Shown here: positions 23,943 to 63,642 of the stretch, piece after piece
Layout: each line of letters begins with the position of its first letter
How positions within the stretch are numbered: position 1 is the first letter of the stretch
Assembly (NCBI GenBank): GCA_963762565.1
Contig: CAVXLD010000007.1
Location: forward strand, 128,001-192,000
Direction: 5' to 3'
From: an uncultured Verrucomicrobiae bacterium
GTDB taxonomy: Bacteria > Verrucomicrobiota > Verrucomicrobiia > Chthoniobacterales > JAFAMB01
DNA: 64,000 bases
The notes under the pieces: model-generated
Told to the model about the DNA's origin: nothing
The model's input: the letters and a program-made list of their open reading frames with translations, nothing else
Database searches by the model: none
Made by a program: the position numbers and the translations under genes

Positions 23943-23951
23943 TCCGGTGGA

Positions 23952-42950: not shown

Positions 42951-43130
42951 GGGTCCGTAGCAACACCCCGGGAGTTGTTTATTTTTTGGGGATCGCCGGC
43001 TATTCGGCGTCTTTACGCAGTCAGTGTTGCGTCGAAGCAGCCTTACGTCTACGGATCTCTACGGTACACTCTTTCTCGGACCCATGAGGTAGAAGACCAA
43101 AAATGACCGCCACAGGAAAGGAGCCTTTCG

Positions 43131-43655
43131 ATGATGGTATCTGTCTTTGTCGGCACCAGCCTTGACGGCTTCATTGCGCGACCGAACGGCGATCTCGATT
43201 TTTTGCCGCCGCACGGCGGCGAACCCCATGGCTACGACGAATTTATAGCAAGCGTCGATGTGATTGTGATAGGTCGCAAGACCTTCGAGACGGTTTTGAC
43301 GCTCGGGCCCTGGCCATATGGTGACAAGCGGGTAGTGGTCCTGAGCAGTCGCCCCGTTGACTTGTCCGCGGCCAGCGGAGGCGCTGTCGAACAGATGGCC
43401 GGGCCTCCGGCTCAGATCGTTTCGCAACTCGCTGCTAGTGGCGCCCGCCACCTCTACGTCGACGGTGGGATCACGATTCAAGGGTTCCTACGCGCGGGGC
43501 TGATTCAACGTCTTATTGTTACTCGTGTGCCTGTCCTCATCGGAGATGGAGTTCCTCTCTTCGGCAGCCTTGGGCGCGACATCCGGCTCCGTCACGTGGC
43601 GACCCGACAGTATCCGAGCGGGCTAGTTAGCAGCGAGTACCATGTCGCCGCCTAA
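43131..43655 (+). CDS. Dihydrofolate reductase/RibD C-terminal domain protein
   Basis: SLDGFIAR, GRKTFE, YVDGG, PVLIGDG. Confidence 0.9.
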   Translation: MMVSVFVGTSLDGFIARPNGDLDFLPPHGGEPHGYDEFIASVDVIVIGRKTFETVLTLGPWPYGDKRVVVLSSRPVDLSAASGGAVEQMAGPPAQIVSQLAASGARHLYVDGGITIQGFLRAGLIQRLIVTRVPVLIGDGVPLFGSLGRDIRLRHVATRQYPSGLVSSEYHVAA

Positions 43656-43966
43656 CTTTCCGAAAAATGTCACGGAATAACGACGGCACTTCTGATGCCC
43701 TTTCAGGGCATGTCTTGTTGAAACCTCACACCCAGGATTGAAACCCCGACTCCGCAAGGCCTACGTCGCGGCCAGTTATTAGGTGATGCAAGCCATAAGC
43801 TAGGGCGCGCCGTAGCGAAGCGAAGGCGGCCTGGGCTAAGTTCTGTTGCCCGTTCCGGGCAAGAAACGCAGCGCATGGCAAACAAAGCGGTTCCCAGAAC
43901 CAGGTCCCTCTCGGAATTCTCTACTTGAACTCCTGACCTCCTTGAACTCCTGTACTTCTTTCACAC

Positions 43967-44032
43967 GGCGCGTTCGTCTAGTCGGTTAGGACACGGCCCT
44001 CTCAAGGCCGGTGCACGGGTTCGAGTCCCGTA
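43967..44032 (+). pseudogene. tRNA-Glu 5' fragment (66 nt), att-like site 1
   Basis: Identical to 57400-57465; the last 10 nt are replaced by GGTTCTCCTCTAGAGCAA. Confidence 0.92.
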
Positions 44033-44357
44033 GGTTCTCCTCTAGAGCAACTCACTAATGAGAACGTGCCGATCGGATATCCTATGTTGGGCCGGACTGG
44101 AGCTTTCCCGAAATTACGCTCTCGTAGCCTATCACTTTGGGAATCATTTGGCATAGGCATGCAGTCAAAAAAGCGCCCCGACGAACCGTTCGTGAGCGTA
44201 AGGATTGTCTCAGAATGAGATGATCCGTTTCAGTTTGAGACGGCGGCTTCTTTGCTATGCAGATTCTGGCCTGTTCGAACCAGCGGCCGAGGTCACGCTC
44301 TTCCCTTGGCATGTAACTTGCCATGTAAGGTTCAGCAAATCCCTCCGAGGACCTGCC

Positions 44358-46925
44358 ATGAGACTCCTGCGCCGCTTTTTCATTCGCCTCGCGAACCTCA
44401 CCACCGGAAGGCGCGCCGACCAGCGCCACCACGCCGAGCAGGGTCTTCCGCTTGCTGAGAATTTTCTCCTCGACCTCCGCTACGCTTTTCGAATGCTGCA
44501 CCGGTCTCCCGGATTTTCGCTGATTGTCATCGCCACCATGGCCCTGGGCGTTGGAGCCACCACCGCCATCTACAGCGTCATCGACGCCACGCTGCTGCAT
44601 CCTTTGCCCTACCCCAACCCCAGCGAACTGGTGCGCATTGAGGACGATCTTCCGGGTGTGGGCGCGCAGGATGTTAGCGTTTCGATTCCTGAGTGGAAGG
44701 ACCTGGAGAACTCGGGGATTTTTCAATACGTGGCCCTCGACTTTTTCGGCTCCGCGAATCTTACGGGCAGCGCACAGCCCACGCGTATCGCGGCGAAGAT
44801 TGTGACGTCGAATTACTTTGCGATGCTGGGTGTGGGCGCGCAGTTGGGCCGCACCTTCGATCCGGGCGACAAGACGCCGGGCTTCAACCTGGAGATGGTG
44901 ATCAGCGACGGGCTCTGGAAGAGGGTGTTTGGAGCGGACCCGCGCATTCTGGGGAAAACGGTGCGCGTGGATAACGATGTGTATCACGTGGTGGGCGTGA
45001 TGCCGCCCGGTTTTCGCGACCAGGGAATGACCAGCGAGGAGCGGAATACGGAGGCGTGGTCGGCAGCCGGCTTTGCCGCTGTGCCGTTTCCACCTCCGCT
45101 GCGCAACTCGCGACTTGGGACGGCCTTCGCGCGTTTGAAACCGGGTCTGCCGGTGGCGTCAGCACAGGCACATATCGACGCGCTGGTGGCTTCGCTGAAG
45201 AAGCAATATCCAGCGGATTATCCTGCGCAGGCCGCATGGACCATCCGCCTGATTCCCCTAGCCGAGACTCTTGTCGGCAACGTTCGCCAGTCGCTGATTC
45301 TGCTGTTCGGCGCGGTGGGCCTGGTCCTGTTGATCGGCTGCGTCAACGTCGCCAATCTGCTGCTTGCTCGCGCCAGCGCGCGCGGACGCGAGATGGCGAT
45401 GCGTCAGGCATTGGGAGCCGCAAGAATGCGCCTCATTCGTCAGCTCCTCACCGAGAGCTTGCTGCTCTTCGTGCTTGGCGGCATCACCGGTTTCGCGGTT
45501 CTCTTCTGCGCCCGGAAATTCCTGTTGCAATTTATTCCCGAAAGTCTGCCGCGCCTCAATGACATTTCCATCAGCTGGGGCGTGCTGGCGTTTGCTATCG
45601 TCGTCTCCGTCGCCGCCGGAACCATCTTCGGGCTTGCTCCGGCGTGGCTCATGAGCCGCCTCGATTTGAACACGACGCTCCGGCAGGAAGGTCGTGGCTC
45701 CAACGGTTCCCGGCAGCGCTCGCGCTTGCGCCATGCTCTGGTGATTGGTGAATTAGCCCTCTCCCTGGTGCTGATGATCGCCGCCGGCCTTCTTCTGCGC
45801 AGCTTCTGGGACTTGTTCAAGGTTCAACTCGGCTTCAATCCCAGCCGCGTCATGGCAATCGAGACCTGGCTGCCGTTTCCCAACGATCCCAAAAACGACA
45901 TTTACAGCACCGCCACGCAGGAATCGGTGCTGCTGCGCGAAGTTCTCCGCCGCAACCGGACGCTTCCCGGTGTGGAAGAAACGGCCGTCGGCGATCGGGC
46001 GGCTCTTCCCCTCGGCCATGGCAAGGACGATCTCAACATGTCCCCCTTGATCCGCGAAGGCCAGGACGTGCAGAGCAGCCAGCCTCCTCTGATCGATACA
46101 TCGTTCGTCTCACCTGAATACTTTCACCTGCTCGGCATGACGCTCCTGCGCGGACGCCTCTTCGTCGATCAGGACCTTGAAGACACGCCTTCGATCGCAG
46201 TCATCAATCAGGCCGCCGCGCGCACCTACTGGCCCAACCAGGATCCGGTCGGCAAGCGCGTCCGGTTGAGGGCCGAGAAGCCGGACTGGACCACCATCGT
46301 CGGCGTAATCGCCGATGCGCGCACCGAATCGCTCGCGGACGCCGCGATTCCGCAGGTCTACCTCGACATCTACCAGCGCTGGGCAAAAGATCTGGCTTTC
46401 TTTCTGCGCGGACAGGTCGATCCCAGCGCCATCTCCGCCCAGGTGCGCACACAAATCCAGGCCGTCGATCCGAACCTTCCGGTCTTCCGCGCGGAGACGT
46501 TGGACGAGGTTCTCTCGTCTTCGCTTTCTGTGCGCCGATTCTCCATGGAAATGGTGGCGCTCTTTGCCGCAACTGCCCTGCTGCTCGCGGGCCTGGGAAT
46601 CTATGGAACCATCTCCTTTCTGGTCAATGAGCAATCGCGCGAGATCGCCATTCGCCTCGCGCTGGGCGCGCAAAGGCGCGATGTCCTCAAGATGGTTTTA
46701 CGCCAGGGCCTCGCTCTGGCCGCCGCTGGCGCCGGTGTAGGCCTGGTTGGCGCGCTGATTGTTTCTCATCTCATGGCCAGCCTGCTTTACGGTGTCTCGC
46801 CCTACGATCTCTCCACCTTCGCCGGCGTAACCGCCGTGCTCACCGCCGTCGCGATCGCCGCCAGTTACGTCCCTGCGCTGCGCGCCATGCGCCTCGATCC
46901 AATCACGACACTCCGCGCCGAATGA
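44358..46925 (+). CDS. Duplicated MacB/FtsX ABC permease (ADOP-like) without ATPase partner
   Basis: DLRYAFRML, LLIGCVNVANLLLAR, REIAIRLALGA, LDPITTLRAE; visibly GC-richer than flanks. Confidence 0.9.
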   Translation: MRLLRRFFIRLANLTTGRRADQRHHAEQGLPLAENFLLDLRYAFRMLHRSPGFSLIVIATMALGVGATTAIYSVIDATLLHPLPYPNPSELVRIEDDLPGVGAQDVSVSIPEWKDLENSGIFQYVALDFFGSANLTGSAQPTRIAAKIVTSNYFAMLGVGAQLGRTFDPGDKTPGFNLEMVISDGLWKRVFGADPRILGKTVRVDNDVYHVVGVMPPGFRDQGMTSEERNTEAWSAAGFAAVPFPPPLRNSRLGTAFARLKPGLPVASAQAHIDALVASLKKQYPADYPAQAAWTIRLIPLAETLVGNVRQSLILLFGAVGLVLLIGCVNVANLLLARASARGREMAMRQALGAARMRLIRQLLTESLLLFVLGGITGFAVLFCARKFLLQFIPESLPRLNDISISWGVLAFAIVVSVAAGTIFGLAPAWLMSRLDLNTTLRQEGRGSNGSRQRSRLRHALVIGELALSLVLMIAAGLLLRSFWDLFKVQLGFNPSRVMAIETWLPFPNDPKNDIYSTATQESVLLREVLRRNRTLPGVEETAVGDRAALPLGHGKDDLNMSPLIREGQDVQSSQPPLIDTSFVSPEYFHLLGMTLLRGRLFVDQDLEDTPSIAVINQAAARTYWPNQDPVGKRVRLRAEKPDWTTIVGVIADARTESLADAAIPQVYLDIYQRWAKDLAFFLRGQVDPSAISAQVRTQIQAVDPNLPVFRAETLDEVLSSSLSVRRFSMEMVALFAATALLLAGLGIYGTISFLVNEQSREIAIRLALGAQRRDVLKMVLRQGLALAAAGAGVGLVGALIVSHLMASLLYGVSPYDLSTFAGVTAVLTAVAIAASYVPALRAMRLDPITTLRAE

Positions 46926-46987
46926 CCTTTGGCACTGCTCGAGACTTGCCTTCACAAGTTGTTGCCATCCCAATGGAAGTCAGAGTT

Positions 46988-47419
46988 ATGAAAATTTCGA
47001 AAAGCGAAATTCCGAAAAAAGCACCCGAGACTTTCGCGGAATTGTGCAGGCTTTTTTTACCGCGTCCGATTCATGATGAGGCCGAAAACGCGGAGATGAT
47101 CCGGGTTATGGATTGGATTGCGGTCCGTGCTCAGAACCGTGATCAATTCGATTATGCAAAAATGCTTGGGGATTTGGTGACAGAATACGAGGTTGCCCAG
47201 CGCCGAAGGGTAAAATCAAAGCTCAGCGGCTTGGAACTCTTGAGAGCCGTCATCGAATCAAGCGGCTTAACTCAAGCGGAGCTGGCGAAGGTCTTGGGCT
47301 TGGCGCAAGGCACGGTTTCGAAGATCATGACGGGCGCGCGGTCGATCACCGTGGATCACGCCAAGCGTGCGTCCCGATATTTTAAGATGGCTCCTGAAGC
47401 GTTTTTGGATCTCGAATGA
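46988..47419 (+). CDS. HigA-like HTH antitoxin, no adjacent toxin
   Basis: PRPIHDE..LVTEYE N-terminus plus LTQAELAKVLG..VSKIMTGAR HTH. Confidence 0.75.
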   Translation: MKISKSEIPKKAPETFAELCRLFLPRPIHDEAENAEMIRVMDWIAVRAQNRDQFDYAKMLGDLVTEYEVAQRRRVKSKLSGLELLRAVIESSGLTQAELAKVLGLAQGTVSKIMTGARSITVDHAKRASRYFKMAPEAFLDLE

Positions 47420-47573
47420 CCCGGATGAGGGCTCAACTTGCGGGGAGATGTCTTCGGTATTCCGAGGCCCGCTCCGGGCGAAGACTAGGGCGACAAAGCG
47501 GTCTTCCGAAAGACAGGTCTCGGAATTCTACTTGAACTCCTGAACTCCTTGAACTCCTGTACTCCTTCAACTT

Positions 47574-47639
47574 GGCGCGTTCGTCTAGTCGGTTAGGACA
47601 CGGCGCTCTCAAGGCCGGTGCACGGGTTCGAGTCCCGTA
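47574..47639 (+). pseudogene. tRNA-Glu 5' fragment (66 nt), att-like site 2
   Basis: 65/66 identical to the intact tRNA (C>G at 47605, anticodon stem), followed by TGTTTTCCTCTAGAGCAA. Confidence 0.92.
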
Positions 47640-47778
47640 TGTTTTCCTCTAGAGCAAAATGCTGTCGACCTTATGTCGCCCTAAAAAGTGAGTTACGAAG
47701 CTGCAGGTGATAATCCTGAAAGCAGCAAGGCGGTCGGCGCGATTGGGAGCGAAATCACGAAATCGAGCGTCTGCGACC

Positions 47779-47949
47779 TCAGCGACCCACGGTGTGAACC
47801 TCAGTCACCATTGCGCGAAGATCTTTGAAGACTTGCTCCGGGTCGTCACCGTGGGTTCCGCCGTAGAACAAATCTGGGCAGAGGCCAACGTAACATTGGT
47901 CCTCATCACTCCAATAAACAACGAGGTGATATCTATCTGCTGGATTCAT
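47779..47949 (-). pseudogene. hicB: HicB-like antitoxin, short or truncated
   Basis: YHLVVYWSDEDQCYVGLCPDL..GTHGDD. Confidence 0.7.
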
Positions 47950-48094
47950 CGATAGCCCTTCTGATTTGTTTTTCGAGATAAGGCTTGGCTTCCTTGCCAT
48001 CGGCGTCAGGAATAATGACTAGAATCTTCGCTTTGTCATGTTTGAACTTTCGATGATCGCCCTTTCCGCCCGGAACCTGATACCAGCCGTCAGC
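47933..48094 (-). pseudogene. hicA: HicA toxin remnant lacking its N-terminus
   Basis: Hand-translated DGWYQVPGGKGDHRKFKH..KEAKPYLEKQI; in-frame stop and no start upstream. Confidence 0.7.
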
Positions 48095-48095
48095 C

Positions 48096-48512
48096 GAACC
48101 GGTCGCTTCTTATGATCCTCAGAAACTCGACGAGGAAACCAAAGAAATTCTCGCGTACCAGAACTACACACTTCCACCTGCATTTTACCAAAGGGCGGCG
48201 AACCTTCCGAAGAACAGCGAGCGCCGCTTTGAAATTGCGAAAGAGGTGCTGTTCACCAAAGTCATCGAACAACGTGCCCGGGCCGCAGAGGTACAGCGTC
48301 ATTTCAAGCCGGATCTGACAATCGTCCTGCAGCATGATGCTTCTCCAGCAAGTGGCCGGGGCCGCCTGGCCGGCGTTGATCGAAACATCTTTTTTGTTAG
48401 CGGCGCCTATCAGGCCAAAGAGCTGCGAGGCGATCCTCATGAACGATTGCGCCTGCTGACCAAATTGTTCGAAAACCGAGGGACTCGCCGATGCCTATTC
48501 TGGAAAGGGTAA
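48096..48512 (+). pseudogene. Internal fragment of an N-acetylmuramoyl-L-alanine amidase-like gene
   Basis: EQRARAAEV..KPDLTIVLQHDA..FVSGAY resembles the amidase_3 core; both ends missing. Confidence 0.45.
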
Positions 48513-48660
48513 GGACTGAGTTCTGCTCAAGACTTCAGCTTTACCGAGGATAGCTTCTCTTTCAGTCCCAACAAGCGCCTGTTTCTTTGGGGATAATTTT
48601 CGAGAGGATCCACGCCCGTAGCTTGGTTCTAGAAGCGTGTCCCGTGTAGAAAGGTGAAGG

Positions 48661-49773
48661 TCATCCTTCTTTGAAGGGATCAACAAATGACCGCCATAAG
48701 CGAGGTCCGAGCTCGAGTTCCTCGTCGCTTAGGAGGCTCGCGTCGAAGTTCCGACAAGCCTCCATGCAGGCGTCAGGCGGTCCGACCAGTGTAAGGTCTT
48801 GTTGCCAGGCAGCGCTTGCCGATGCGTTTTTTGATCCTAGCACTCCGACTTTCCCAGCCTGCGACCACAGCCGATGGGTGCCTGGCTGAGAGGCAAGCCG
48901 GATCTCTCCGCGCCCGCGAATCACACCGCGCCAACCCTCTCTTACGAACTCCACAAAACGCTTTGGATGGATGGGTCGCGGGACAGAAACGCGAACTCGC
49001 GCGCAGCGGGTATCCGCAACTATCCAGCGGAGTTGCAGACGAGCGACGCTGGCGCAGGCGTCGTCATGGTTTGAATTTTCGTCCTCCGACATCGGCTGAC
49101 TGTAAGCTGTAAGCGGTTTGACAGTCTGATCCGCTATTGTGGTCTTTGGGTTCAGCGCTCGGATTAACCTGATCGCGTTCTGCAAGGTCGCCGGATCCAT
49201 GGCTTGCCGATCGGTGATGACCACGGTGTCTGCGCATTCAATCGAGCGCGAGAGAGAATGGCCTTGGCTGCAACCGCCTTCCGAATGGGTGTCGGCAGTG
49301 TCCTCCGGCTCAGCCGCCGCAGCATCAGTCCAGAACCACTCAAATAGGCCGTTGGCCGGCATCACCAGTATTGAGCGGGTGAGACGCACAATGCTTCGCA
49401 AATCGATTCCGCCGGGAAAGCGATGTACAAGACTATCGTGAGCAGTCGGCAGTTCGTCGCTACTGTCTAATTCGATGACGACATGATCGGAAGAGCGTTC
49501 TCTGGCGATCGCCTGGAGCTCAATAAAAAGGTCTGCCCGAAACGGAACGACTAATCCCGACTGGGTAATCTTGATTCGCTTGGATTCGGCCCGACGAAAG
49601 TGGACGCGTGAATTTCTCTCTATTGTGCACCGCTCATGGTCAAAGCTGAGCACCGTGACCAGTTGTGGACTGAGGTCTGCGATCAGCTGTTCCACGATCG
49701 GGCCGCGGAGTGCTCGGTTGGGTCCGGCCAATAAAGTCGCACGGAGAGGCGGCGATGGGTCGGGCAAGAGCAT
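48661..49773 (-). CDS. Degenerate COG0523/CobW-like protein lacking GTPase motifs
   Basis: IECADTVVIT, IRALNP, RPIHPKRF..VIRGRG..WSQAG, QQDLTLVG; Walker A replaced by AGPNRALRG. Confidence 0.7.
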   Translation of the reverse strand: MLLPDPSPPLRATLLAGPNRALRGPIVEQLIADLSPQLVTVLSFDHERCTIERNSRVHFRRAESKRIKITQSGLVVPFRADLFIELQAIARERSSDHVVIELDSSDELPTAHDSLVHRFPGGIDLRSIVRLTRSILVMPANGLFEWFWTDAAAAEPEDTADTHSEGGCSQGHSLSRSIECADTVVITDRQAMDPATLQNAIRLIRALNPKTTIADQTVKPLTAYSQPMSEDENSNHDDACASVARLQLRWIVADTRCARVRVSVPRPIHPKRFVEFVREGWRGVIRGRGEIRLASQPGTHRLWSQAGKVGVLGSKNASASAAWQQDLTLVGPPDACMEACRNFDASLLSDEELELGPRLWRSFVDPFKEG

Positions 49774-49802
49774 GAGGATAGTTCAACGAAGCAAGGCTTA
49801 GT

Positions 49803-49841
49803 TGCAAGTAACTTGCAGATAGTGGTTGCAAATTAGTTGCA
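49803..49841. promoter_or_regulatory. Tandem candidate Zur boxes
   Basis: TGCAAGTAACTTGCA and TGCAAATTAGTTGCA with starts 24 bp apart. Confidence 0.72.
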
Positions 49842-49866
49842 GATTACCGAAGGGTCATTCTCAAGA

Positions 49867-50892
49867 ATGAACCTCTCTTCAAGACTCCCGGTCACCGTCC
49901 TTTCCGGATTTTTAGGTTCCGGCAAGACCACCTTGCTCAATCACATCCTCAATAATCGCGAAGGCAGGCGCGTGTCCGTCATCGTGAATGATATGAGCGA
50001 AGTAAACATCGACGCGACTCTCGTCCGTGATGGTGGCGCTGAACTCAGTCGGACCGAGGAAAAGCTCGTGGAGTTGTCGAATGGCTGCATCTGTTGCACG
50101 CTCCGAGACGACCTGCTCAAGGAGGTATCACGGTTGGCCAATGAAAACCGTTTTGATTATCTGCTCATTGAATCCACCGGAGTCTCTGAACCTTTGCCGG
50201 TAGCTCAAACCTTCACTTTTGCTGATGAGAACGGGTACAGCCTGGAATCGCTCACTCGTCTCGACACGATGGTAACGATGGTGGATGCCGCCAATTTTTT
50301 TGACCAGTTCCACAAGGCCGAGACACATTGGCGGAACACCAGTTAGCGATTGGTGACGAAGATGAACGCACCATCTCGGATTTGCTGATTGACCAAATTG
50401 AGTTTGCCGGCGTAATCGTCATCAACAAAGTCGATCGGCATTGGTAGTCTTGTCTTTCGAGCTCGTCGACCGTTTCATCCGGAGCGGTTTTGGAATTTTG
50501 TGCATAACGATTGGCCCAGACTACTTCGCTCGACGGGTTTCTTCTGGTTATCAACCCGGAACGACATCGTGGGTGGCTGGTCGCAGGCCGGAGGCAGCGC
50601 GGAACATCGGCCTGTTGGAGTTTGGTGGGCGGCAGTTCCCAAGGATCGGTGGCCGATCGAAAAAGAGGTTCAAGACTATATCGCAAAGGACTGGCATCCG
50701 TTTTACGGCGACCGCCGCCAGGAACTTGTCTTTATCGGTCAGGACTTACCCAAGACCGAGATGTTGGCCGCTCTCCAGGAATGTTTGCTCAATGATCAAG
50801 AGACGAGTTTTGAACCAGAAGAATGGAAGAGAGGATTCTCTGATCCGTTTCCCGCTTGGATAAATCAAACCCCGCAGCACCACCTCCAATGA
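49867..50892 (+). pseudogene. COG0523 zinc metallochaperone (ZigA/YciC-like), frameshifted and internally deleted
   Basis: [17 protein letters not shown] intact; apparent extra CA near 50325; INKVD joined out of frame to GIGSLVFRARRPFHP near 50437. Confidence 0.88.
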
Positions 50893-50911
50893 CACACTCT
50901 TCTCAGGCAGG

Positions 50912-51382
50912 CTACGACTTAAATGACCTGAAGTGATAGATTGAAGCCGGAACCGCCTGCGGTTTATTCAAAGGACCTCTCATGGCCGACCAGAAATGTT
51001 TTGCAGATGGCGATGCCTCCTTAGGTAAAGATAACCGAAATCTAGCTTTCTCGATTTCTGTCGGTTTCAGCTGGACCTTAACTGACCGTTTTTCGACGAC
51101 CACAGAAAAAAGCAAGGCCATCGCGTCTTTGTCGCGCCGATCTAGAACCATTAGCAGAGTATCGATCTCCACCCGAAGTCCACATTCTTCGTAGACTTCT
51201 CGCTTCAATGCATTAGTCAGTGATTCGCCTCGTTTGACTTTGCCTCCTGGCAGCGTCCAAAGCTTCAATCCGGTAACCTGGCGGACAAACAAGACTCTAT
51301 GACACGAGTCTTCTATCCAGGCCATAACCGATACTTCTTTTGTAGCGGATATCCGGCCTACCTTCTTTTTCAGTCTAGCCAT
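50912..51382 (-). CDS. NUDIX hydrolase
   Basis: GGKVKRGESLTNALKREVYEECGL Nudix box. Confidence 0.9.
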   Translation of the reverse strand: MARLKKKVGRISATKEVSVMAWIEDSCHRVLFVRQVTGLKLWTLPGGKVKRGESLTNALKREVYEECGLRVEIDTLLMVLDRRDKDAMALLFSVVVEKRSVKVQLKPTEIEKARFRLSLPKEASPSAKHFWSAMRGPLNKPQAVPASIYHFRSFKS

Positions 51383-51647
51383 CTAGGATGCAAAGCGGAT
51401 CTTCTGTCATTTTTTCCAAGGCTCGCTAGTCCGGATAGCCACTCTTCCGGGCTGGACGAGCACCCTCCGACCTTAGTTTCTGGCAAAGTAGTCCTCATCG
51501 CTGGCTAAACGGCGATTCGCCGAAAAGCAGGCTACGCCGCTGCAAAACGATCTTAATCGCCAATTTAGGTCTTGCAACGACATATTGGCTCGACTAAGTC
51601 TTATTTCAGAGAAAAGATTTCTTTGGCTTAGTTAGCTGCATAAACCA

Positions 51648-51971
51648 ATGAAACAAACCGTGAACGCAGATGACACGATAGCTCCGGAGCGGGCCTGGCG
51701 CTTCTGCCGAGTTCCTCCCTCCATGCCCCGAAGTAGATCGTTCCATCGACTATTTAGGATGGGCTCGAATTGGTTTGGTCGACTGCTCCAGGCGGGCGCG
51801 AATTGGTGCGGTATTCTTCGCAAGTTGCTCGCCTTCTCCGGCCCGCGCTCTTTCGTAGGATTCGGCCGCGCGGATCGAGGGAACTGGGCCGGAGACATAC
51901 CTCGGATTCCCCATTTCTGCTACAGGCTCTTACCAATCGTGATCGCCTTTGGCCTCAGGCCATCTTTCTGA
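51648..51971 (+). pseudogene. Decayed 5' fragment of a second mntH
   Basis: RKLLAFSGPRSFVGFGRADRGNWAGD aligns with Nramp TM1 AFAGPAMLVSVGYMDPGNWSTD. Confidence 0.7.
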
Positions 51972-52006
51972 CCAATTGAACCGCCACACCCGTTGAAAAA
52001 GTTGAG

Positions 52007-53416
52007 ATGAAAAGCGCGAATGACGTATCCAAGCCAACTCAAAGGCTTCGCTCTTTGGAGGGGTTCCACAGTACGGTTAGCGTTCCGCCGGGCTCCGCTC
52101 ATCCACTGCGCCAGTATCTCGCGTTCGCGGGTCCGGCTATGCTTGTCAGCGTGGGATACATGGATCCCGGAAACTGGTCCACAGACTTGAGTGCCGGAGC
52201 CGGGTTCAAATACGGCCTACTCTTTATCGTAGGTCTGGCGAGTCTTATGGCGATTTTCTTGCAGGTAATCTCCGCCAGACTCGGCGTCGTGACCGGCAAG
52301 GACTTGGCCCATTGTTGCCGGGACCATCTGCCAGGGTGGACGCGGTGGCCGAACTACCTCAGTTGCGAAATCGCCATCGCCGCCTGCGACCTAGCCGAGG
52401 TGCTGGGCAGCGCGGTCGCCATCCACCTCTTATTCCCGCGCATTTCGCTGCTCGCAGCGGTCATCATTACCGCCTGCGACGTGCTTCTGCTCCTCTCGCT
52501 GCAAAGGCTGGGAATGCGGTTGATTGAGGCAGTGATCGTCGTCTTGATTGGAACGATTGGCGTCTGCTATTTCGTCGAAATCTTCGTGCTACCGCAGACC
52601 ACCCCGAATCTGCTTGAAGTCGCTTCTGCGACCGTCGCCCCGAATCTGGGAGCTTTCTTTAAGAACAAAGACATGGTCTTTATCGCCATCGGCATCATAG
52701 GAGCCACGGTGATGCCCCACAATTTGTATCTGCATTCCGCACTCGTTCAATCGAGAAAACTGCAAGCTGACGATGCCTCGGTGCGCCGGGCGATTAAGTT
52801 CAATACAATCGATTCCGTCATCGCGCTGTCGCTGGCGTTTTTTGTGAATGCTGCCATTCTCGTGCTGGCGGCACTGATCTTTTTTGGGAAGGACAAGCTG
52901 ACACTACCCGGCGGCGAGGTGGTGGTGTTCGATAAGGATGCGGACTGGATACAGGTGGCTTACCTGACGTTGTCTCCGCTCCTCGGCGTGGCTGCGGCTA
53001 GCCTTCTTTTTGCCCTGGCGCTCTTGGCCAGCGGGCAGAGCAGCACGATCACGGGTACGCTGGCCGGGCAGGTGGTGATGGAGGGATTCATGGATTGGAA
53101 AATCCGCCCCTGGGTGCGCCGGTTGATTACCCGCTTGGCGGCCATTGTGCCAGCGATCTTACTCATCGGCGTGCGCGGTGACGGCGGTGTGAACGATCTG
53201 TTGAACCTAAGCCAGGTGGTCCTCGCCATCCAGTTGCCGCTCGCCATGTTTCCGCTGCTCTGGTTCACCGGTTCCCGGAAGCTCATGGGATCTCATCGCA
53301 ACGGACGCTTCCTCACGATCGCTGGCTGGACCTCGTGCCTGCTCATCACCGCGCTTGACATTTATGGTCTGCCGGGAGCGATTCATGACGCCATGGCTGT
53401 ATTCGCACCACGCTGA
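52007..53416 (+). CDS. mntH: Nramp Mn2+/Fe2+ transporter
   Basis: DPGN, GATVMPHNLYLHS, GQSSTITGTLAGQ. Confidence 0.95.
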   Translation: MKSANDVSKPTQRLRSLEGFHSTVSVPPGSAHPLRQYLAFAGPAMLVSVGYMDPGNWSTDLSAGAGFKYGLLFIVGLASLMAIFLQVISARLGVVTGKDLAHCCRDHLPGWTRWPNYLSCEIAIAACDLAEVLGSAVAIHLLFPRISLLAAVIITACDVLLLLSLQRLGMRLIEAVIVVLIGTIGVCYFVEIFVLPQTTPNLLEVASATVAPNLGAFFKNKDMVFIAIGIIGATVMPHNLYLHSALVQSRKLQADDASVRRAIKFNTIDSVIALSLAFFVNAAILVLAALIFFGKDKLTLPGGEVVVFDKDADWIQVAYLTLSPLLGVAAASLLFALALLASGQSSTITGTLAGQVVMEGFMDWKIRPWVRRLITRLAAIVPAILLIGVRGDGGVNDLLNLSQVVLAIQLPLAMFPLLWFTGSRKLMGSHRNGRFLTIAGWTSCLLITALDIYGLPGAIHDAMAVFAPR

Positions 53417-53432
53417 AAGTTCTTAGAAGTCT

Positions 53433-53891
53433 ATGTACGAAAAAATTCTGGTTGCTCTGGATGCGACGGCCGCTGATCGGACAATTTTGGACCATGTCAC
53501 CAAACTCGCGCTCACCTTTGGAAGTTCGTTAGTGCTCCTGCACGTGGCTGATGGCTGGGCTGCGCGTTTGTTCGGCACTGACGCCGTTAGTGAAGAAATC
53601 CAGCAGGATAAAGCCTATCTGGAATCAGTCCGGTCCAAACTCGCTGCGGCGGGCATTCGGGTCGAAGCAGAACTCGCTTACGGTGAACCTGCGGATCAGA
53701 TCATTCGTTGGATCGAAAGCCGGGGCTGTGATCTCGTGGCGATGTCTACCCATGGCCACCGTTTCATCAGCGACCTGCTTTATGGCAGCACCGCGGATAA
53801 TGTGCGCCACCGTGTCAATGTACCAGTGCTGATGCTCAAAGCGATGAAAGCATCTGGCAGTCCAACTAACCCTATATCTACCCGTGCCTGA
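53433..53891 (+). CDS. Universal stress protein
   Basis: MYEKILVALD, GEPADQI, STHGHR..GSTADNV. Confidence 0.9.
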   Translation: MYEKILVALDATAADRTILDHVTKLALTFGSSLVLLHVADGWAARLFGTDAVSEEIQQDKAYLESVRSKLAAAGIRVEAELAYGEPADQIIRWIESRGCDLVAMSTHGHRFISDLLYGSTADNVRHRVNVPVLMLKAMKASGSPTNPISTRA

Positions 53892-53937
53892 CACCCCCCG
53901 CCGGACGCAGTGATGGCTGCGCTACTCTCTTCTTCTA

Positions 53938-54416
53938 TGGCAAAGCTTAATCAGAGCAACACTCACTTGAAGCCTTCGAATTTCGAGGTCAAAGATCGCA
54001 GCCGCCGCCTTCGCGGCGACGAGCAATCCACCGAAACCGGAGAGGACTATCTGGCCTGCATATTTGCCTTGATCGAAGAGAAGGGATATGCGCGGGTCGC
54101 GGCTGTGGCCGAGTCTCTTTCAGTCGCCGAGCCAAGCGCTTCTGTTATGATCAAGCGCTTAGCGCAAAAGGGATATCTCAAGCACGAAAAGTATCGGGGA
54201 TTCACGCTGACGGAAACCGGTCATGCGATGGCTCGTGATGTTCACGCTCGGCGCCGAATATTGACCACTTTTCTGCAGTCTCTCGGGCTTCCAAAAGGTG
54301 TGATTCAACACGATGTCCATGGGTTGGAACACCATCTCAGCAAACAAACATTTGAGCAGTTAAGGTTATTTGTTCAAGCGCATGGAGTTCAGAATCCGTT
54401 TGATCAATCAAAATAA
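53938..54416 (+). CDS. mntR: DtxR/MntR family metal-dependent regulator
   Basis: EDYL..I, EKYRGFTLT, DVHGLEHHLS. Confidence 0.85.
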
Positions 54417-54538
54417 GCCGACGCTTCCTTAGGGCAGCGATCGCGGCTGTGACCCAATGAGATCTATCGCGCCAAAGGTGTGCCTCGATTGTTAGGCTCA
54501 ACAAAGAATCTTTCTTCAAGTTAAATACCTATAAAACT

Positions 54539-56809
54539 ATGCCGCCGCTTCTTATTCGTTTGATGAGCTCTCCTACTCAATCAGGCAATTCTCGTTGGAT
54601 CGGAAATTCATCATTTCGGTCAAATAACGGAATACGCTACTTCGTCGCGGTATGTGCGACCGCTGTTTTCGTTGGTCTCCTGGCAGATCCGACCTGCGCG
54701 CAGGACGCGTCACCATCTCCGACGCCAGAGAATACCCACTCCGCCGATCAGCAAGGCCCGAATAACCAGCCGAGTCCTCCCAGATCACTCCAAGAGGTTG
54801 TCGTAACGGGCCAGACCCCACAGCAGGATGGTATCACCCCGCAAATCTCGCCAGAATTGGGCGTCACCAGCTACACGGCTGGCCAAAGCCAAATTGCGAG
54901 CGCACCCGGCGGCGCTAGCGCACCTTTCCAACAAGTTCTGTTGCGTCTGCCAGGCGTGGTCCAGGATTCCTACGGAGAGATACACGTCAGAGGGGAACAT
55001 GGCTATGCTGAGTACCGTATCAACGGGGTGATGTTGCCAGAAGGTCTTGAAGGTTTTGGCCAGGAATTTGACTCTCATTTCATCCAGAGCGCCACACTTC
55101 TGACGGGCGCATTACCTGCCCAATTCGGCCTCCGCTTGTACGGCGTCGTCGATATCACCACTAAAACCGGGTCCGATCTAAACGGTGGCGAAGCAGGGGT
55201 GTACAGCGGCAGCTTTGATACCGTTCGCCCTTATATCGATTATGGAGGGAGCGACGGTAAGCTGGATTACTTTTTCAGCTTTAGCGAACTTCACAGCGAC
55301 CTCGGCATTGAAAATCCCACTCCGAGCACGCGAGCACTGCACGATTACACCAATCAGTTAAAGGGGTTCGGGAGCTTCAGTTACAAAATTAGCGACACGT
55401 CCAAGGTCATCCTCATTTTAAGCGCGTCTTACTCCGATTTTGAAATTCCGAACCGTCCGGGGCAAACCCCGCGATTTGATCTCGTTGGGGTAACACCTTT
55501 CCCGTCGTCAGAATTAAACGACAATCAAAATGAGCAGGATTATTTTGCTGTTCTAGCCCATCAGCTCACGCTCGGCGACTTCACCCTGCAAACGTCCTTA
55601 TTCGCCCACTATAATCGAATCCATTTTACGCCAGACGCTGAAGGTGACCTGATTTACGAGGGCGCTGCTGGATTAATTGACAACGTACTCCGCTCAGAGG
55701 GCGCGCAGATCGACGCAACCTATAGTCTGGACGAACATACCTTCGAATTCGGCACGGCTATTACCTTTGAAAGCTATGACCGTCACGATTCCACCCTGGT
55801 TTTTCCGGCTACTGCCAGCGGCGTGCAGACTAGCGATGTTCCTTTCAATATCAGTGACGTGGACAGCAAGAACGGCTTGCTCTTCAGCCTATATGCCCAG
55901 GATGCGTGGCACCTGACACGCCAATTAACTATTAACTACGGGCTACGCTACGACTTAAGTGAGGGCTATTCGTATGGCACCCAGTGGAGTCCGCGCATCA
56001 ACGCCGTCTATCAACTTAGCGATGCAACTACGTTCCACCTCGGTTACGCCCGCTATTTCACTCCTCCGGGACTCGAATTTATTTCGGCTCCCAACGTTGC
56101 CCATTTTGCCAATACCACCAACACACCAACCGTATTCACTCAAGATGCGCCCTACCCCGAACGGGCAAATTATTTCGACGCCGGCGTTCTTCACAAGGTT
56201 GGTTCGAACTTGAGTCTGACCGTCGATGCCTTTTATAAAGCGTCCACTGGAGGCCTCGATCTCGGACAGTTCGGCGATGCGGTGGTTCTCACGCCGTTCA
56301 ACTACAGTCATGGACACACCTATGGCATCGAAACTGGCGCAGAATTTAGCCAGGGACCGTGGCGGGCCAATCTCAACTTCTCTTATGTGCGCGCCATTGC
56401 GTTCGGCATAACATCGGCCCAATCTGAGTTCCCGGCTGATGAGTTAGCCTACATCGACACTCATCACATAATCCTGGACCATGACCAGCCGTTTACCGTC
56501 TCGGCCGACGTTTCCTACACATTCAACCGCAATCATACCCGGATTTTTGCCGATTTTCTTTTCGGAAGCGGCTTGCGCTACGGCTTCGCGAACGAGGGCA
56601 CTCTGCCAGTTCACTATCCGATCAGCCTAGGCATAGAACATACGATCCCGATCAATCGAGACGGAATCAAGGCGATCAGGCTGCGGCTTGATTGCACCAA
56701 TATCACCAACCAAAGGTTCATCTTGCGCGCAGGGAGCGGCGTGGGTATTGCCGAGCCGCAATATCTCCCGACTCGCGGCTTTTTTGGCACGTTTGCCTAT
56801 GAATTTTAA
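54539..56809 (+). CDS. TonB-dependent receptor
   Basis: EVVVTG TonB box, PGVVQDS..HVRGEH plug, C-terminal Phe; start uncertain. Confidence 0.88.
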   Translation: MPPLLIRLMSSPTQSGNSRWIGNSSFRSNNGIRYFVAVCATAVFVGLLADPTCAQDASPSPTPENTHSADQQGPNNQPSPPRSLQEVVVTGQTPQQDGITPQISPELGVTSYTAGQSQIASAPGGASAPFQQVLLRLPGVVQDSYGEIHVRGEHGYAEYRINGVMLPEGLEGFGQEFDSHFIQSATLLTGALPAQFGLRLYGVVDITTKTGSDLNGGEAGVYSGSFDTVRPYIDYGGSDGKLDYFFSFSELHSDLGIENPTPSTRALHDYTNQLKGFGSFSYKISDTSKVILILSASYSDFEIPNRPGQTPRFDLVGVTPFPSSELNDNQNEQDYFAVLAHQLTLGDFTLQTSLFAHYNRIHFTPDAEGDLIYEGAAGLIDNVLRSEGAQIDATYSLDEHTFEFGTAITFESYDRHDSTLVFPATASGVQTSDVPFNISDVDSKNGLLFSLYAQDAWHLTRQLTINYGLRYDLSEGYSYGTQWSPRINAVYQLSDATTFHLGYARYFTPPGLEFISAPNVAHFANTTNTPTVFTQDAPYPERANYFDAGVLHKVGSNLSLTVDAFYKASTGGLDLGQFGDAVVLTPFNYSHGHTYGIETGAEFSQGPWRANLNFSYVRAIAFGITSAQSEFPADELAYIDTHHIILDHDQPFTVSADVSYTFNRNHTRIFADFLFGSGLRYGFANEGTLPVHYPISLGIEHTIPINRDGIKAIRLRLDCTNITNQRFILRAGSGVGIAEPQYLPTRGFFGTFAYEF

Positions 56810-57399
56810 ATGCGCTCCGCCACCAGTCCCATTGAAATGAAAAACTTACTATCGATTATGCGAACTCTGGTACGGCTAACTAAAAGCTTTAAGCCTCGTT
56901 GGATCCTACCGATTATGGCCCTAATGATCAGACTATTCGTTTGCTAACTCGAGGCACTAGGGCTGAGCACTTCGATGGATAGCTCTTGGGGTTGCTGCTC
57001 TGCACCTCCTCCAAAAACACCACGTACTTCGCCGGGAGGCCCTCGTTTGCGCTGTAGGAGTCCTATAAGGAAGCCGTAATCTCTAGTCTCCCTAGGGGTA
57101 AGGCTGCGACTGTTTCAAGCGCGTCAAACATGTGACGCACATCCTCCGGCGACGCCCTGACAATATCCGAAAGCATCTTTTCACTCTCGGAATCATTGAT
57201 CGGTGCAGCCCGCCAAAGATCCAGCTACGGGTTACCATCGTTGGGAAACCTTTGAGGAAGCTCCGGAGCCTCGCCCTACAATCATGCCTGACCGATCCGG
57301 AGCCGGCTCATGGCCAACAAAGAAGTCTTCTCCAAAGACGGCCTCTCGGAATTCTACTTGAACTCCTGAACTCCTTGATCTCCTGTACTTCTTCTACTC

Positions 57400-57475
57400 G
57401 GCGCGTTCGTCTAGTCGGTTAGGACACGGCCCTCTCAAGGCCGGTGCACGGGTTCGAGTCCCGTACGCGCTGCCA
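57400..57475 (+). tRNA. tRNA-Glu (anticodon CTC)
   Basis: GGCGCGT/ACGCGCT acceptor stem, CGGCC-CTCTCAA-GGCCG anticodon arm, ACGGG-TTCGAGT-CCCGT T arm, encoded CCA. Confidence 0.97.
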
Positions 57476-57542
57476 TTTCTAAGGAGTTCAAGGAGTCCGA
57501 GGAGTTACAGGAGTTCAGGAGGTGGTTCTCGGACCACGATCT

Positions 57543-57881
57543 CTAGGCTTCGGCGAGGACAGTCTTGGTGTTTTCGCGCTCCACAGTCAGGTTCACCGAT
57601 CGGGCGCCTGCTGGGCGGGTGCGATGAACCACGTTGGCCGGTACGGTTGCCATCTGGCCGGGTTCTAAATGGAGAACTTGGTCCTGCGTCTCTAGGACCA
57701 GGCCGCCTTCCATGACAATGAAGGTCTCATCAGAATTCGGATGCAGATGCCAAGGGTATCCGCTGGTCATTACGCTGATTCGAATCACGTGGTCATTGAG
57801 TGCCGTGACGGCTTCGTTGTGATAGCCGCTTTGGACTGGGTCTGTTTTATCGCGAGGATCAATCTTGCTAATGTTGCTCAT
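57543..57881 (-). CDS. Cupin domain protein
   Basis: WHLHPNSDETF..VPANVVHR. Confidence 0.85.
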   Translation of the reverse strand: MSNISKIDPRDKTDPVQSGYHNEAVTALNDHVIRISVMTSGYPWHLHPNSDETFIVMEGGLVLETQDQVLHLEPGQMATVPANVVHRTRPAGARSVNLTVERENTKTVLAEA

Positions 57882-57900
57882 CGGGTAACCGTGACTCTGT

Positions 57901-58401
57901 ATGCTCCGCCAACCTGTTTTAAAAGGCCAGCTCATCGAACTGCGCCCCCTTCGATCCGAGGATTTTGATGAGCTTTTTGCGGTGGCGTCGGATCCGTTGA
58001 TTTGGGAGCAACATCCGCACAATACTCGCTATCAGGAAGATGTTTTCAGGAAGTTCTTTAGCGATGCGTTGGCTTCCGGCGGTGCGCTGATCGTGATCGA
58101 TTCTAAGACCGGCCGGGTGATTGGGTCGTCGCGCTATGCCGGCTATGACAAGGACAGGAGTCAAGTCGAGATCGGTTGGACCTTTCTGGCCAGGTCGCAT
58201 TGGGGCGGCGTTTATAACAGCGAGATGAAGCGGCTAATGTTGGATCACGCGTTTCAATTTGTGCACAACGTTATCTTCGTCATCGGCACGCAGAATCTTC
58301 GGTCGCAGAGAGCGGTTGAGAAACTTGGCGCAGTGCGAAACGGGTCTACGATCGATTCTGGCGGCGCGGATTGTTTTGTTTACCGGCTGACCCGGGAGTA
58401 A
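57901..58401 (+). CDS. GNAT family acetyltransferase (RimJ/RimL-like)
   Basis: EIGWTFLARSHWGG, NLRSQRAVEKLG. Confidence 0.88.
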   Translation: MLRQPVLKGQLIELRPLRSEDFDELFAVASDPLIWEQHPHNTRYQEDVFRKFFSDALASGGALIVIDSKTGRVIGSSRYAGYDKDRSQVEIGWTFLARSHWGGVYNSEMKRLMLDHAFQFVHNVIFVIGTQNLRSQRAVEKLGAVRNGSTIDSGGADCFVYRLTRE

Positions 58402-58476
58402 CGCCGAGATCGCCGGGAAAGCTGACATCGCCGGCAACGCCGGCAACGCTGGTATCGGCAGCCTCCACCTTGTCGT

Positions 58477-59010
58477 TTAGACTCGGACGCGCTTAGTAAG
58501 GCCGATATCGATTCCGCGGCGTAGATCGATCACCGCTTGAATTTCGGTGTCGCGGTCCAATTCCGGTTTGTCGTAGTGGTCGACCGATTTATACGAAGGT
58601 TGAGGCCGGTCCCAGGGGTAGTCGGGGAGAAGAGAAACGGCGCCGGCTTTGGCATAGATTTTGGCTTCGGGAATGAATTCTCCGCGGGTTCCGTTTCCCC
58701 AGTGCCCGAAGAGGATGGCGGCGAAAGGTCCCTTGCCCTTAGGCACGACGAGGTAGGCATCTACGAGGCCGCCTTTTGGACTGGCGTAGGTAATGTCATG
58801 AAGGGTGCAATCAGGAAATTCTTCGATAACCTTGTCCTGGATATCGAGCGGCAGCTGGTTGTCGTAATCAAACAAGTGGCTGAGCGATTGAAAATCGGGC
58901 GTTGTTTGAGCGGGCGCCGATGTGCCGAGCCAGGCCGGCGAGGGCGACAAGAGCAAGTAGCGTTCGCATGGGAAGCGTTGGGGTTTGGGAGGTGCGAACA
59001 AGTCTATCAA
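58477..59010 (-). pseudogene. Truncated alpha/beta hydrolase (esterase-like)
   Basis: YLVVPKGKGPFAAILFGHWG..DLRRGID then ends before the expected GxSxG nucleophile. Confidence 0.6.
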
Positions 59011-59135
59011 CGATCACAGCGGGCACAGCAAGCCATGGTAAACCGGTGGCTACCCCCTTCGAGCACGAGCACGATCGGGGACCTTTACGCTGATGAACTT
59101 GTCCAGGACATGATTCCCCACTAAGGTTCCAACCT

Positions 59136-60122
59136 GTGCCTGATTATCGTCCTGGTGAATTTAACGTAAACATCAACGTCCGATCCGCGATGTGGATCGT
59201 ACTTTCCTTGATCATCGTCTTCGTAGTGGCCGTCCTCGCGTTGACCTCGTATTACACGGTGGCAGCAGATTCGGAGGGGGTGGTTCTGCGCTTTGGGAAA
59301 TACATGAAAACCGTGCAACCAGGGCTGCATTTCAAGCTGCCGTTTGGAATCGATACGGTAGCGGTCATCCCGACCCGGCGGCAGTTGAAGCTCGAGTTCG
59401 GGTTCACGACGCCCGGTTATTTGTCTAACCCGATTCAGGCTAGCGAGGATCCTAACGAGGAAAAATCGATGGTTACCGGAGACCTGAATGCGGTTTTGGT
59501 GGAGTGGGTAGTGCAATATCGGATCGAGGATCCGAGCCAGTATCTTTTCGATGTGCGTAATCCGGGAGAAACCCTTCGCGACGTGTCTGAAGCGGCCATG
59601 CGAGAGGTGGTCGGGGACCGGACAGTGGATGAGGTCATCACGATTGGACGCCAAGATATCGAGACCGAGGCGCTGACCCGGATGCAGGAATTGGCCAAAC
59701 GGTATCATCTCGGGATTCGAGTGGATCAGGTGCAATTGAAGAATGTGAATCCGCCGGCGCAGGTACAGGCCTCATTCAACGAAGTAAACAAGGCGCAGCA
59801 AGACAAGCAGAACGCGATCAATATCGCTAACGGCGAATACAATAAAGTGATCCCGAGAGCGAAGGGTCAAGCGGACGAAACGATCCGGGCCGCAGAAGGT
59901 TACCGGTTCAAACGGGTTAACGAAGCAGAGGGCGATGTGGCTGCGTTCAGTGCCGTCTTGCAGCAGTATATTAAAGCGCCCGATATCACGCGCACCCGGC
60001 TTTACCTCGAAACTATGGAAGATGTGCTGCCGCAGACGGGCCCGAAAATCATCGTGGATGAGTCTTTACGGCAATTGCTTCCGATTCTGCCGCTGTCAAA
60101 GGGCGGGGAGGTGCACCCATAA
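59136..60122 (+). CDS. hflK: FtsH modulator HflK
   Basis: GVVLRFGK, TGDLN, NPPAQVQASF, RLYLETME. Confidence 0.92.
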   Translation: MPDYRPGEFNVNINVRSAMWIVLSLIIVFVVAVLALTSYYTVAADSEGVVLRFGKYMKTVQPGLHFKLPFGIDTVAVIPTRRQLKLEFGFTTPGYLSNPIQASEDPNEEKSMVTGDLNAVLVEWVVQYRIEDPSQYLFDVRNPGETLRDVSEAAMREVVGDRTVDEVITIGRQDIETEALTRMQELAKRYHLGIRVDQVQLKNVNPPAQVQASFNEVNKAQQDKQNAINIANGEYNKVIPRAKGQADETIRAAEGYRFKRVNEAEGDVAAFSAVLQQYIKAPDITRTRLYLETMEDVLPQTGPKIIVDESLRQLLPILPLSKGGEVHP

Positions 60123-62529: not shown

Positions 62530-62560
62530 TTGACGTCTCCAATCCGCTACGCGGATGGCT

Positions 62561-63279: not shown

Positions 63280-63377
63280 ATCGTCCAAGTATAACCGGCA
63301 ATTGGGAGCAATTGCTCCTTCGCTTAGACGCATCAGGAGCGATTTTGTTTGCAGATTTTTGTACGAAAGGACCTGTC

Positions 63378-63607: not shown

Positions 63608-63642
63608 TTGATATGACGAAAATATCATACGATTGGATAGCC

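Follow-up and report, generated by a model that had tools for sequence, protein, structure and literature searches.

The window analysed here, a 64,000-nucleotide (64-kb) stretch of contig CAVXLD010000007.1 from an uncultured Verrucomicrobiae bacterium, carries three copies of a leader joined to the 5' part of a tRNA-Glu(CTC) gene. Only the last copy continues into an intact gene, and the copies delimit two gene modules. With somewhat better than even confidence, we consider this array to result from the site-specific, tandem accretion of two decayed, integrase-less islands, resembling cis-mobilizable elements (CIMEs), at the tRNA-Glu(CTC) gene, in the minority '5'-fragment' configuration.

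A repeat search of positions 43000-58500 returned a single family, made of three direct 131-nt copies at 43920-44050, 47527-47657 (93% identical to the first) and 57353-57483 (87% identical to the first). The distances from copy to copy are 3607 and 9826 nt, and no fourth copy of this leader-tRNA repeat is present elsewhere in the 64-kb window. Each copy consists of a leader of about 90-110 nt followed by nt 1-66 of tRNA-Glu(CTC); all are co-oriented, with tRNA parts starting at 43967, 47574 and 57400. Repeat search and alignment thus reproduced the three copies described in a first-pass annotation of the sequence. The tRNA parts and the segments that follow the broken ones are:

43967 to 44032, plus strand: broken copy 1, tRNA-Glu(CTC) nt 1-66 (alignment; Rfam 45.0 bits)
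44033 to 44050, plus strand: tail 1, proposed left end of module 1 (tail alignment)
47574 to 47639, plus strand: broken copy 2, tRNA-Glu nt 1-66 (alignment; Rfam 40.4 bits)
47640 to 47690, plus strand: tail 2, proposed left end of module 2 (about 30-50 nt conserved with the tail of locus L013, described below)
57400 to 57475, plus strand: intact tRNA-Glu(CTC), CCA encoded (ARAGORN; Rfam 60.7 bits)

In the alignment, tRNA nt 1-66 are invariant across the three copies, the sole exception being one C>G change in copy 2. It disrupts the anticodon-stem pair 31-39, as would be expected for a dead copy. The continuation CGCGCTGCCA after nt 66 is found in copy 3 alone (57400-57475), which agrees with the earlier observation that only the last copy has the 3' acceptor strand. 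The T-arm reads ACGGG / TTCGAGT / CCCGT and is followed by A66: the break, at the same base in both broken copies, comes one base after the end of the T-stem's 3' strand, where the acceptor stem has its first base pair, and so falls at the T-stem/acceptor junction. Beyond this point, tail 1 (GGTTCTCCTCTAGAGCAA, 44033-44050) and tail 2 (TGTTTTCCTCTAGAGCAA, 47640-47657) are identical at 16 of 18 positions, again as previously described, and then diverge. Their Smith-Waterman score of 29 was reached by none of 500 shuffles. The possibility that the tails derive from the trailer of the intact gene by internal deletion, suggested by the string GGTTCTC...CTCTAG at 57524-57546, was rejected, the corresponding scores being at chance level (equalled in 184, 153 and 147 of 500 shuffles).

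ARAGORN predicts tRNA-Glu(ctc) at copy 3 and also, wrongly, at copy 2. The Rfam tRNA model gives 60.7 bits for copy 3, 45.0 for copy 1 and 40.4 for copy 2, which places both broken copies above the gathering threshold; the stretches concerned are 43967-44039 and 47574-47647. Automatic annotation would list three tRNA-Glu genes here, two of them being fragments. A permissive Rfam scan of 43000-58500 for other RNA families returned the three tRNA matches and one chance-level small RNA match only.

Related loci were collected in one scan of 185,579 species genomes, using as query a 34-mer corresponding to tRNA nt 33-66. It yielded 20 loci (L001 to L020), all of them from metagenome-assembled genomes (MAGs) of Verrucomicrobiota / Chthoniobacterales and all from species other than that of the window, whose own genome is outside the set. 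An acidobacterial affinity, hinted at by the label 'ADOP' given to the module 1 permease, was dismissed, as the nearest loci belong to Verrucomicrobiota (Chthoniobacterales-like). Judged from the flanks of the 34-mer, 14 loci are intact tRNA-Glu genes, 5 are 3' fragments and one, L013, is a fragment bearing the same tail as the window.

In L013, which comes from another Verrucomicrobiota genome, tRNA nt 29-69 are followed by CGCTTTCCTCTAGAGAATAATGCC..., and identity to the tRNA ends at nt 66-69. Tail 2 and the L013 tail match at 25 of 29 nt, with a Smith-Waterman score of 38 that no shuffle out of 500 attained, and a blastn alignment of the tail 2 region with L013 gives 89.9% identity over 69 nt, 37 of which are tRNA. 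The presence of the same tail at the same tRNA position in a second genome indicates that the junction is a conserved recombination joint, and it is in line with the earlier proposal that the shared tail is a conserved element end. The left edge of the L013 fragment, C|GCCCTCTC at nt 29, is also that of the five classical anticodon-loop-type fragments, and its left arm is unrelated to the one common to L001, L006, L011 and L020. One fragment therefore combines two independent junction types, a classical left edge and a tail-joint right edge. An intact tRNA-Glu gene with its own leader (L002) follows on the same 5-Mb contig, 14,048 bp downstream of the fragment. Such a layout is the one expected if an island carrying a leader and 5' part had inserted into a displaced 3' fragment.

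The five 3' fragments (L001, L006, L007, L011 and L020) run from nt 29 or 30, approximately, to nt 76, and are of the classical anticodon-loop type. A short-word search detected two further 3' fragments, in L001 (nt 47-76) and, in degenerate form, in L011. In L012, a tyrosine integrase is encoded 88 nt downstream of the tRNA. Together with the tail-bearing fragment of L013, these observations designate the tRNA-Glu gene as an integration hot spot in this clade. In L005 (9564-9767, minus strand), a 68-aa integrase remnant, 41% identical to the tRNA-adjacent integrase of L012, is divergently oriented about 200 nt upstream of the intact tRNA-Glu gene. It sits where the integrase of a 5'-carrying island would be expected, and it is too small for certainty. 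The short-read MAG contigs of L003, L008, L016 and L018 break off at the tRNA gene or no more than about 90 nt from it, which fits the presence of a repeated tRNA gene, or of parts of it, in these genomes.

The region that follows copy 3 is conserved among relatives:

57543 to 61120: chromosomal backbone, comprising a cupin gene (minus strand), a GNAT gene, a 195-aa open reading frame (ORF) and two Band7/SPFH genes (conserved with L011)

Identity of this backbone to L011 is about 80% at the nucleotide level and 79-91% at the amino acid level, and in L010 and L020, too, the GNAT gene is a neighbour of the tRNA or of a 3' fragment of it. The downstream flank is conserved, and the modules are absent from all 20 loci, which belong to other species. 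When the 22 proteins of the modules and of the region upstream were searched for among these loci, two counterparts only were found, both distant: a permease paralogue in L002 (29% identical) and a helix-turn-helix (HTH) protein in L006 (39% identical). The upstream flank is different in every genome. A sugar ABC operon was considered as the native upstream flank and rejected, the operons of L002/L013, L003, L009, L016 and L019 being only 26-42% identical and thus paralogues. It follows that no native upstream anchor can be defined.

The following history would account for the array. The attachment site of each island would have consisted of the leader of about 90-110 nt, tRNA nt 1-66 and the island's own tail. 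A tyrosine-type integrase, lost since or encoded elsewhere, would have crossed over in the resident gene, at its T-loop or T-acceptor junction. The leader and nt 1-66 of that gene would then have stayed upstream, fused to the island tail, to become a broken copy, and the island leader and nt 1-66 would have joined the resident nt 67-76, trailer and backbone to give a rebuilt gene. The leader of copy 1 would be the resident leader under this model. A second insertion, into the rebuilt gene, would have displaced the first island upstream, with the resulting order copy 1 - module 1 - copy 2 - module 2 - intact tRNA; if module 2 did enter the intact gene, it would be the younger island. The first-pass annotation had proposed that each element carries the leader and 5' part and rebuilds the tRNA at its downstream end. 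The topology fits this proposal. The anatomy, the tail joint recurring in a second genome, the conserved downstream flank and the lack of any recombinase are direct observations; that the crossover was site-specific, that the events took this order and that the modules were once mobile is what we infer.

The gene content of the two modules was established with Pfam:

44051 to 47483, plus strand: module 1, without recombinase (Pfam)
44205 to 46925, plus strand: MacB_PCD/FtsX-type permease of 906 aa, module 1 (Pfam)
46922 to 47419, plus strand: Xre-type HTH protein, module 1 (Pfam)
47658 to 57308, mixed strands: module 2, without recombinase (Pfam, ORF list)
47779 to 48018, minus strand: HicB-like ORF, module 2 (by eye only)
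47933 to 48109, minus strand: HicA remnant, module 2 (Pfam, E 3e-11)
48661 to 49773, minus strand: COG0523 gene, module 2 (Pfam)
49837 to 50346 and 50500 to 50892: split COG0523 gene, cobW and CobW_C pieces, module 2 (Pfam)
50912 to 51382, minus strand: NUDIX gene, module 2 (Pfam)
52007 to 53416: Nramp/MntH gene, module 2 (Pfam)
53433 to 53891: Usp gene, module 2 (Pfam)
53910 to 54416: MntR-type repressor gene, module 2 (Pfam)
54539 to 56809: TonB-dependent receptor gene, module 2 (Pfam)

The content announced earlier was recovered in this way, apart from HicB, for which there is no Pfam match. Module 1 is compositionally odd, a sign of foreign origin: its GC content is 0.597, compared to 0.543 for the window, and the GC content at third codon positions (GC3) of the permease gene is 0.736, compared to 0.53-0.65 for 18 backbone genes measured outside both modules. 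Module 2 shows decay, with the HicA remnant, the split COG0523 gene and a stretch of about 1 kb after the tail that has no intact gene. The split COG0523 gene, together with the region upstream of it (49800-50860), has a resident paralogue at 12007-12369, with 73-83% nucleotide identity. A TTGCAA-rich palindromic 42-mer is common to 12328-12369 and 49800-49841, and looks like a shared operator.

The leaders and the trailer of the intact gene have a structure of their own:

43876 to 43966, plus strand: leader of copy 1, with hairpin GGTTC/GAACC at 43889-43901 and two TTGAACTCCTG units (alignment)
47484 to 47573, plus strand: leader of copy 2, with hairpin GTCTT/AAGAC at 47501-47514 (alignment)
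57309 to 57399, plus strand: leader of copy 3, with hairpin GTCTT/AAGAC at 57325-57339, pairing with the trailer (fold, alignment)
57476 to 57560, plus strand: trailer, with four 9-nt GGAGTTCAA-like units, inverted relative to the leader units (fold, shuffles)

Between CATGG and the start of the tRNA, pairwise identity of the leaders is 75-80%; over the proximal 55 nt or so, copy 3 is 93-96% identical to each of the other two. The leader motif TTGAACTCCTG has 8 matches with at most one mismatch where 1.19 are expected, a number reached in none of 100 shuffles. Compensatory changes preserve the distal hairpin, whose stem is GGTTC/GAACC in copy 1 and GTCTT/AAGAC in the two other copies. Read on the minus strand, it precedes CTTTGTTTGC and so resembles a terminator. 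The intact tRNA is enclosed in a long leader-trailer inverted repeat (57325-57560), with TTGAACTCC-like 9-nt units upstream and GGAGTTCAA-like complements downstream. The reverse-complemented leader aligns to the trailer with a score of 35, reached by 0 of 500 shuffles, and the predicted fold of leader, tRNA and trailer has an energy of -103.9 kcal/mol (z -4.62), unmatched in 200 shuffles. The broken copies have no trailer, and their folds are no better than those of shuffles (z 0.32 and 1.18). This inverted repeat could serve as a helix for precursor processing or as repeats to which a protein binds. The same type of leader is found in L003 (13-140, minus strand), which has a 2-nt TC indel in common with the leader of copy 1 and shows the longest similarity to it upstream (177 nt, 87%), and the same type of trailer lies beside a 3' fragment in L011 (4180-4240). 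A leader phylogeny intended to separate resident from imported leaders gave a mixed signal.

The leader had also been thought to be carried as a promoter, an idea that found no support: no sigma-70-like site was detected in the three leaders, the only one reported being TTGAAA-16-GATTAT at 56832-56859, outside the repeat. The same scan, however, found no site in the leaders of L010, L018 and L002 either, although these have in common a CTTGAGT...GATAAAT-like motif. It is therefore too strict to decide, and constitutes weak evidence either way.

Several observations weigh against a history of integrase-mediated accretion, beginning with the recombinase itself. As already remarked in the first-pass annotation, none is visible: the 78 ORF entries of the window contain no integrase, resolvase or transposase domain (Phage_integrase, Resolvase and Recombinase being among the families searched), and no recombinase domain occurs in the 34 ORFs of at least 90 aa of the L013/L002 region. 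All three tail-linked segments (3/3) are without a recombinase. A tblastn search with three integrases from the loci (E<=5) gave only a 30-aa match in the window, with E 3.6, and Pfam at E<=0.05 revealed no recombinase remnant in 15 small ORFs of the window and 5 of the loci; the ORF size cut-offs in the locus scans were 90 aa (L013/L002 region), 150 aa and 110-120 aa. Furthermore, the tail is carried by only one of the 20 loci. The leaders are mosaic: among 13 columns that split two by two, copy 1 goes with L003 in 7, with copy 3 in 4 and with copy 2 in 2. In L011, a tRNA-Glu 3' fragment and its trailer are duplicated (4133-4440 and 6290-6540) around a RibD_C and GH16 segment, upstream of the GNAT gene, in what appears to be the mirror image of the window. 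The duplicated part, here of the usual polarity, takes in 83 nt or more of trailer beyond the tRNA (score 89, reached by none of 500 shuffles). A pure att-site model does not predict this, and it hints at flank capture or homologous exchange in the clade. Finally, the homology offered by a repeat of about 175 bp suffices for RecA-dependent insertion, and the crossover point cannot be placed from sequence.

These points lend weight to homologous recombination in which no dedicated integrase takes part, an explanation that we regard as rather unlikely and yet a genuine competitor. Circular or linear DNA of relatives, with homology to the leader and 5' tRNA part, would have entered in a Campbell-style event, or the copies would have arisen by unequal crossing-over, the DNA between them being replaced later; the tail joint would have arisen once, illegitimately, and then been inherited or exchanged. 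The repeat, with a proximal part more than 90% identical, is long enough for RecA; the missing recombinase and the leader mosaicism agree with this scheme, and the L011 trailer suggests that flanks travel with the tRNA part. The paralogy between the COG0523 gene of module 2 and the resident gene at about 12 kb also fits, and would point to a close relative, or the genome itself, as donor. What argues for site-specific accretion instead is that the joint falls exactly at the T-stem/acceptor junction, a known integrase subsite, and that L013 has this same joint and tail with a different left partner (nt 29 onward, not the leader), for which a single illegitimate event is insufficient. In addition, the classical integrase-type fragments and the one tRNA-adjacent integrase show that site-specific recombination is active at this tRNA in the clade.

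Islands of the usual polarity that do not restore the tRNA gene might also be invoked. The attP site would then be tRNA nt 29-66 plus tail, insertion would leave leader, nt 1-66 and tail at the left end, with a 29-76 fragment at the right one, and an intact copy would have been regained later. tRNA-Glu(CUC) may be dispensable where tRNA-Glu(UUC) exists. L013, of the form X-[29-69]-tail, resembles such an attP, the five X-[29/30-76] fragments resemble attR and the broken copies of the window attL; non-restoring integration at tRNA genes is described for mycobacteriophages in the account given in PMC10865867. Nevertheless, the arrays of the window and of L013/L002 both end on the right in a complete tRNA with a full leader, no X-[29-76] fragment is present in the window, two additional ad hoc re-acquisitions are required, and the left arm of L013 is unrelated to that of L001, L006, L011 and L020, so that we find this scenario very improbable. 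An assembly artefact, namely a single tRNA locus wrongly expanded or chimerically joined, is the least credible explanation of all. The source is probably a MAG or draft genome, and in 4 of the 20 relatives the contig ends at or beside the tRNA, which indicates that the locus is hard to assemble. But the copies differ (87-93% identity, with indels), and are thus not collapsed or duplicated reads; the modules contain coherent gene sets; and the same kind of joint is found in an independent genome, on the 5-Mb contig of L013/L002.

A variant of site-specific accretion would see in the modules a live, cassette-like class of elements with no recombinase of their own, moved in trans by an integrase encoded elsewhere or by the host. 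Integrative mobile elements exploiting Xer (IMEX), for instance, use XerCD. The sole requirement in cis would be the leader with its 9-nt repeats, tRNA nt 1-66 and the tail; the 9-nt units that flank the tRNA (in the leader, inverted in the trailer, and beside the tRNA 3' fragment of L011) would serve as arm-type binding sites, and the same recombinase would insert cargo on either side. We hold this variant to be quite unlikely.

Accretion of decayed islands places the array next to several known systems. The reversed att architecture is not new and is already catalogued: according to Table 1 of the Islander study (PMC4383910), 159 of 3,919 islands have a 5' tRNA gene fragment. The rule given there allows a 5' fragment upstream, or a 3' fragment downstream, of the tRNA gene; the footnote of the same table names the anticodon loop, the T loop and the T/acceptor junction as crossover subsites; and the tandem arrays counted in that study comprise 125 with at least two members and 4 with at least three. 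Section 7 of PMC6563490 cites Zhao & Williams 2002 for the reversed case, and mentions archaeal cases. The window has the full tRNA gene (57400-57475) together with cognate fragments in the same orientation on the same replicon (43967 and 47574), both 5' fragments lie upstream of the intact gene, and identity ends at nt 66 in both broken copies. As in the Islander islands described, the intact tRNA is downstream, co-oriented 5' fragments that end at the T-loop or T-acceptor junction are upstream, and tandems occur; also as in these 5'-fragment islands, the island must bring the 5' part of the gene, and hence its upstream signals. Islander islands as defined there must, however, contain an integrase gene, which neither module does; the duplicated block here includes the leader of about 90-110 nt, and the host belongs to the Verrucomicrobiota. 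With agreement in fragment, orientation, configuration and subsite and no integrase, the modules are best called decayed (CIME-like) islands.

CIMEs, as presented in section 2.3 of PMC5704250, have lost integration and transfer genes and kept their att sites, and integrative and conjugative or mobilizable elements (ICEs and IMEs), of the ICESt1/St3 family and others, accrete in tandem. Neither module here has such genes, and the att-type repeats flanking both would represent putative attL and attR sites. The similarity extends to the stacking of newcomers that enter an att site in which the target gene's end lies (PMC5704250). The cases described in that section are nevertheless at gene 3' ends, and cis-mobilisation by a functional neighbour was shown there experimentally; no functional neighbouring element is visible within the 64 kb. 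Tycheposons of Prochlorococcus form arrays separated by partial tRNAs, with degenerate remnants; following the preprint (10.1101/2020.12.28.424599), newcomers push older elements inward and the cargo includes nutrient and metal uptake genes, as here. They are defined in it, however, by an integrase (tyrosine or serine recombinase) and a replication module of their own, none of which Pfam found in the window.

Two more distant parallels may be drawn. In Caldiarchaeum subterraneum, the description of the tRNA-Thr locus in PMC3293823 puts 1.8 kb, and a recombinase, between an upstream 5' fragment and the intact gene. As in the window, DNA is inserted between a 5' tRNA fragment and the intact gene; unlike in the window, the insert encodes a recombinase and occurs in the genome as six repeats, and introns are involved (PMC3293823). 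In the tRNA-dependent lysogeny of mycobacteriophages, as set out in PMC10865867, integration leaves a non-functional tRNA and element-borne tRNA sequence supplies the function. A non-functional copy is left in both situations, but a separate phage tRNA complements there, whereas here the gene would be rebuilt at the downstream junction.

The rest of the window contains many genes for metal handling. Positions 1-43700 encode two P-type ATPases, a CusA-like resistance-nodulation-division pump with its partners, NikR and two MerR regulators, as well as ArsR, a low-molecular-weight phosphatase, DUF6428, CadD and two TonB receptors. A cobalamin riboswitch (8707-8899, minus strand, 94.9 bits) lies upstream of a TonB-dependent receptor gene (6514-8556, minus strand). 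About ten tandem 42-bp units with a GCCTCGCAAGCGAGGC-type palindrome occupy 23263-23680, and inverted or single copies of such units are found at 23852-23947, 2432-2487, 63369-63396 and 63564-63608; this family looks like dispersed repeats akin to repetitive extragenic palindromic (REP) sequences. A direct repeat of about 200 bp (33770-33964 and 62536-62739, with blocks of 92% and 86% identity, 28.8 kb apart) overlaps unannotated ORFs.

The 5'-fragment polarity is rare but catalogued, and the locus adds a case from an under-sampled phylum. Island finders that require an integrase, or that expect 3' fragments, would miss the array; the conserved tail provides a short search key for the element family and for its missing recombinase. 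The theme of the cargo is metal homeostasis, with manganese uptake and its regulator, COG0523 metallochaperones, a TonB receptor and an ABC-type permease, and the tRNA array adds manganese and zinc functions to an already metal-focused region. In the Verrucomicrobiota (Chthoniobacterales-like), a poorly studied soil phylum, one tRNA-Glu gene gathers cargo upstream as well as downstream.

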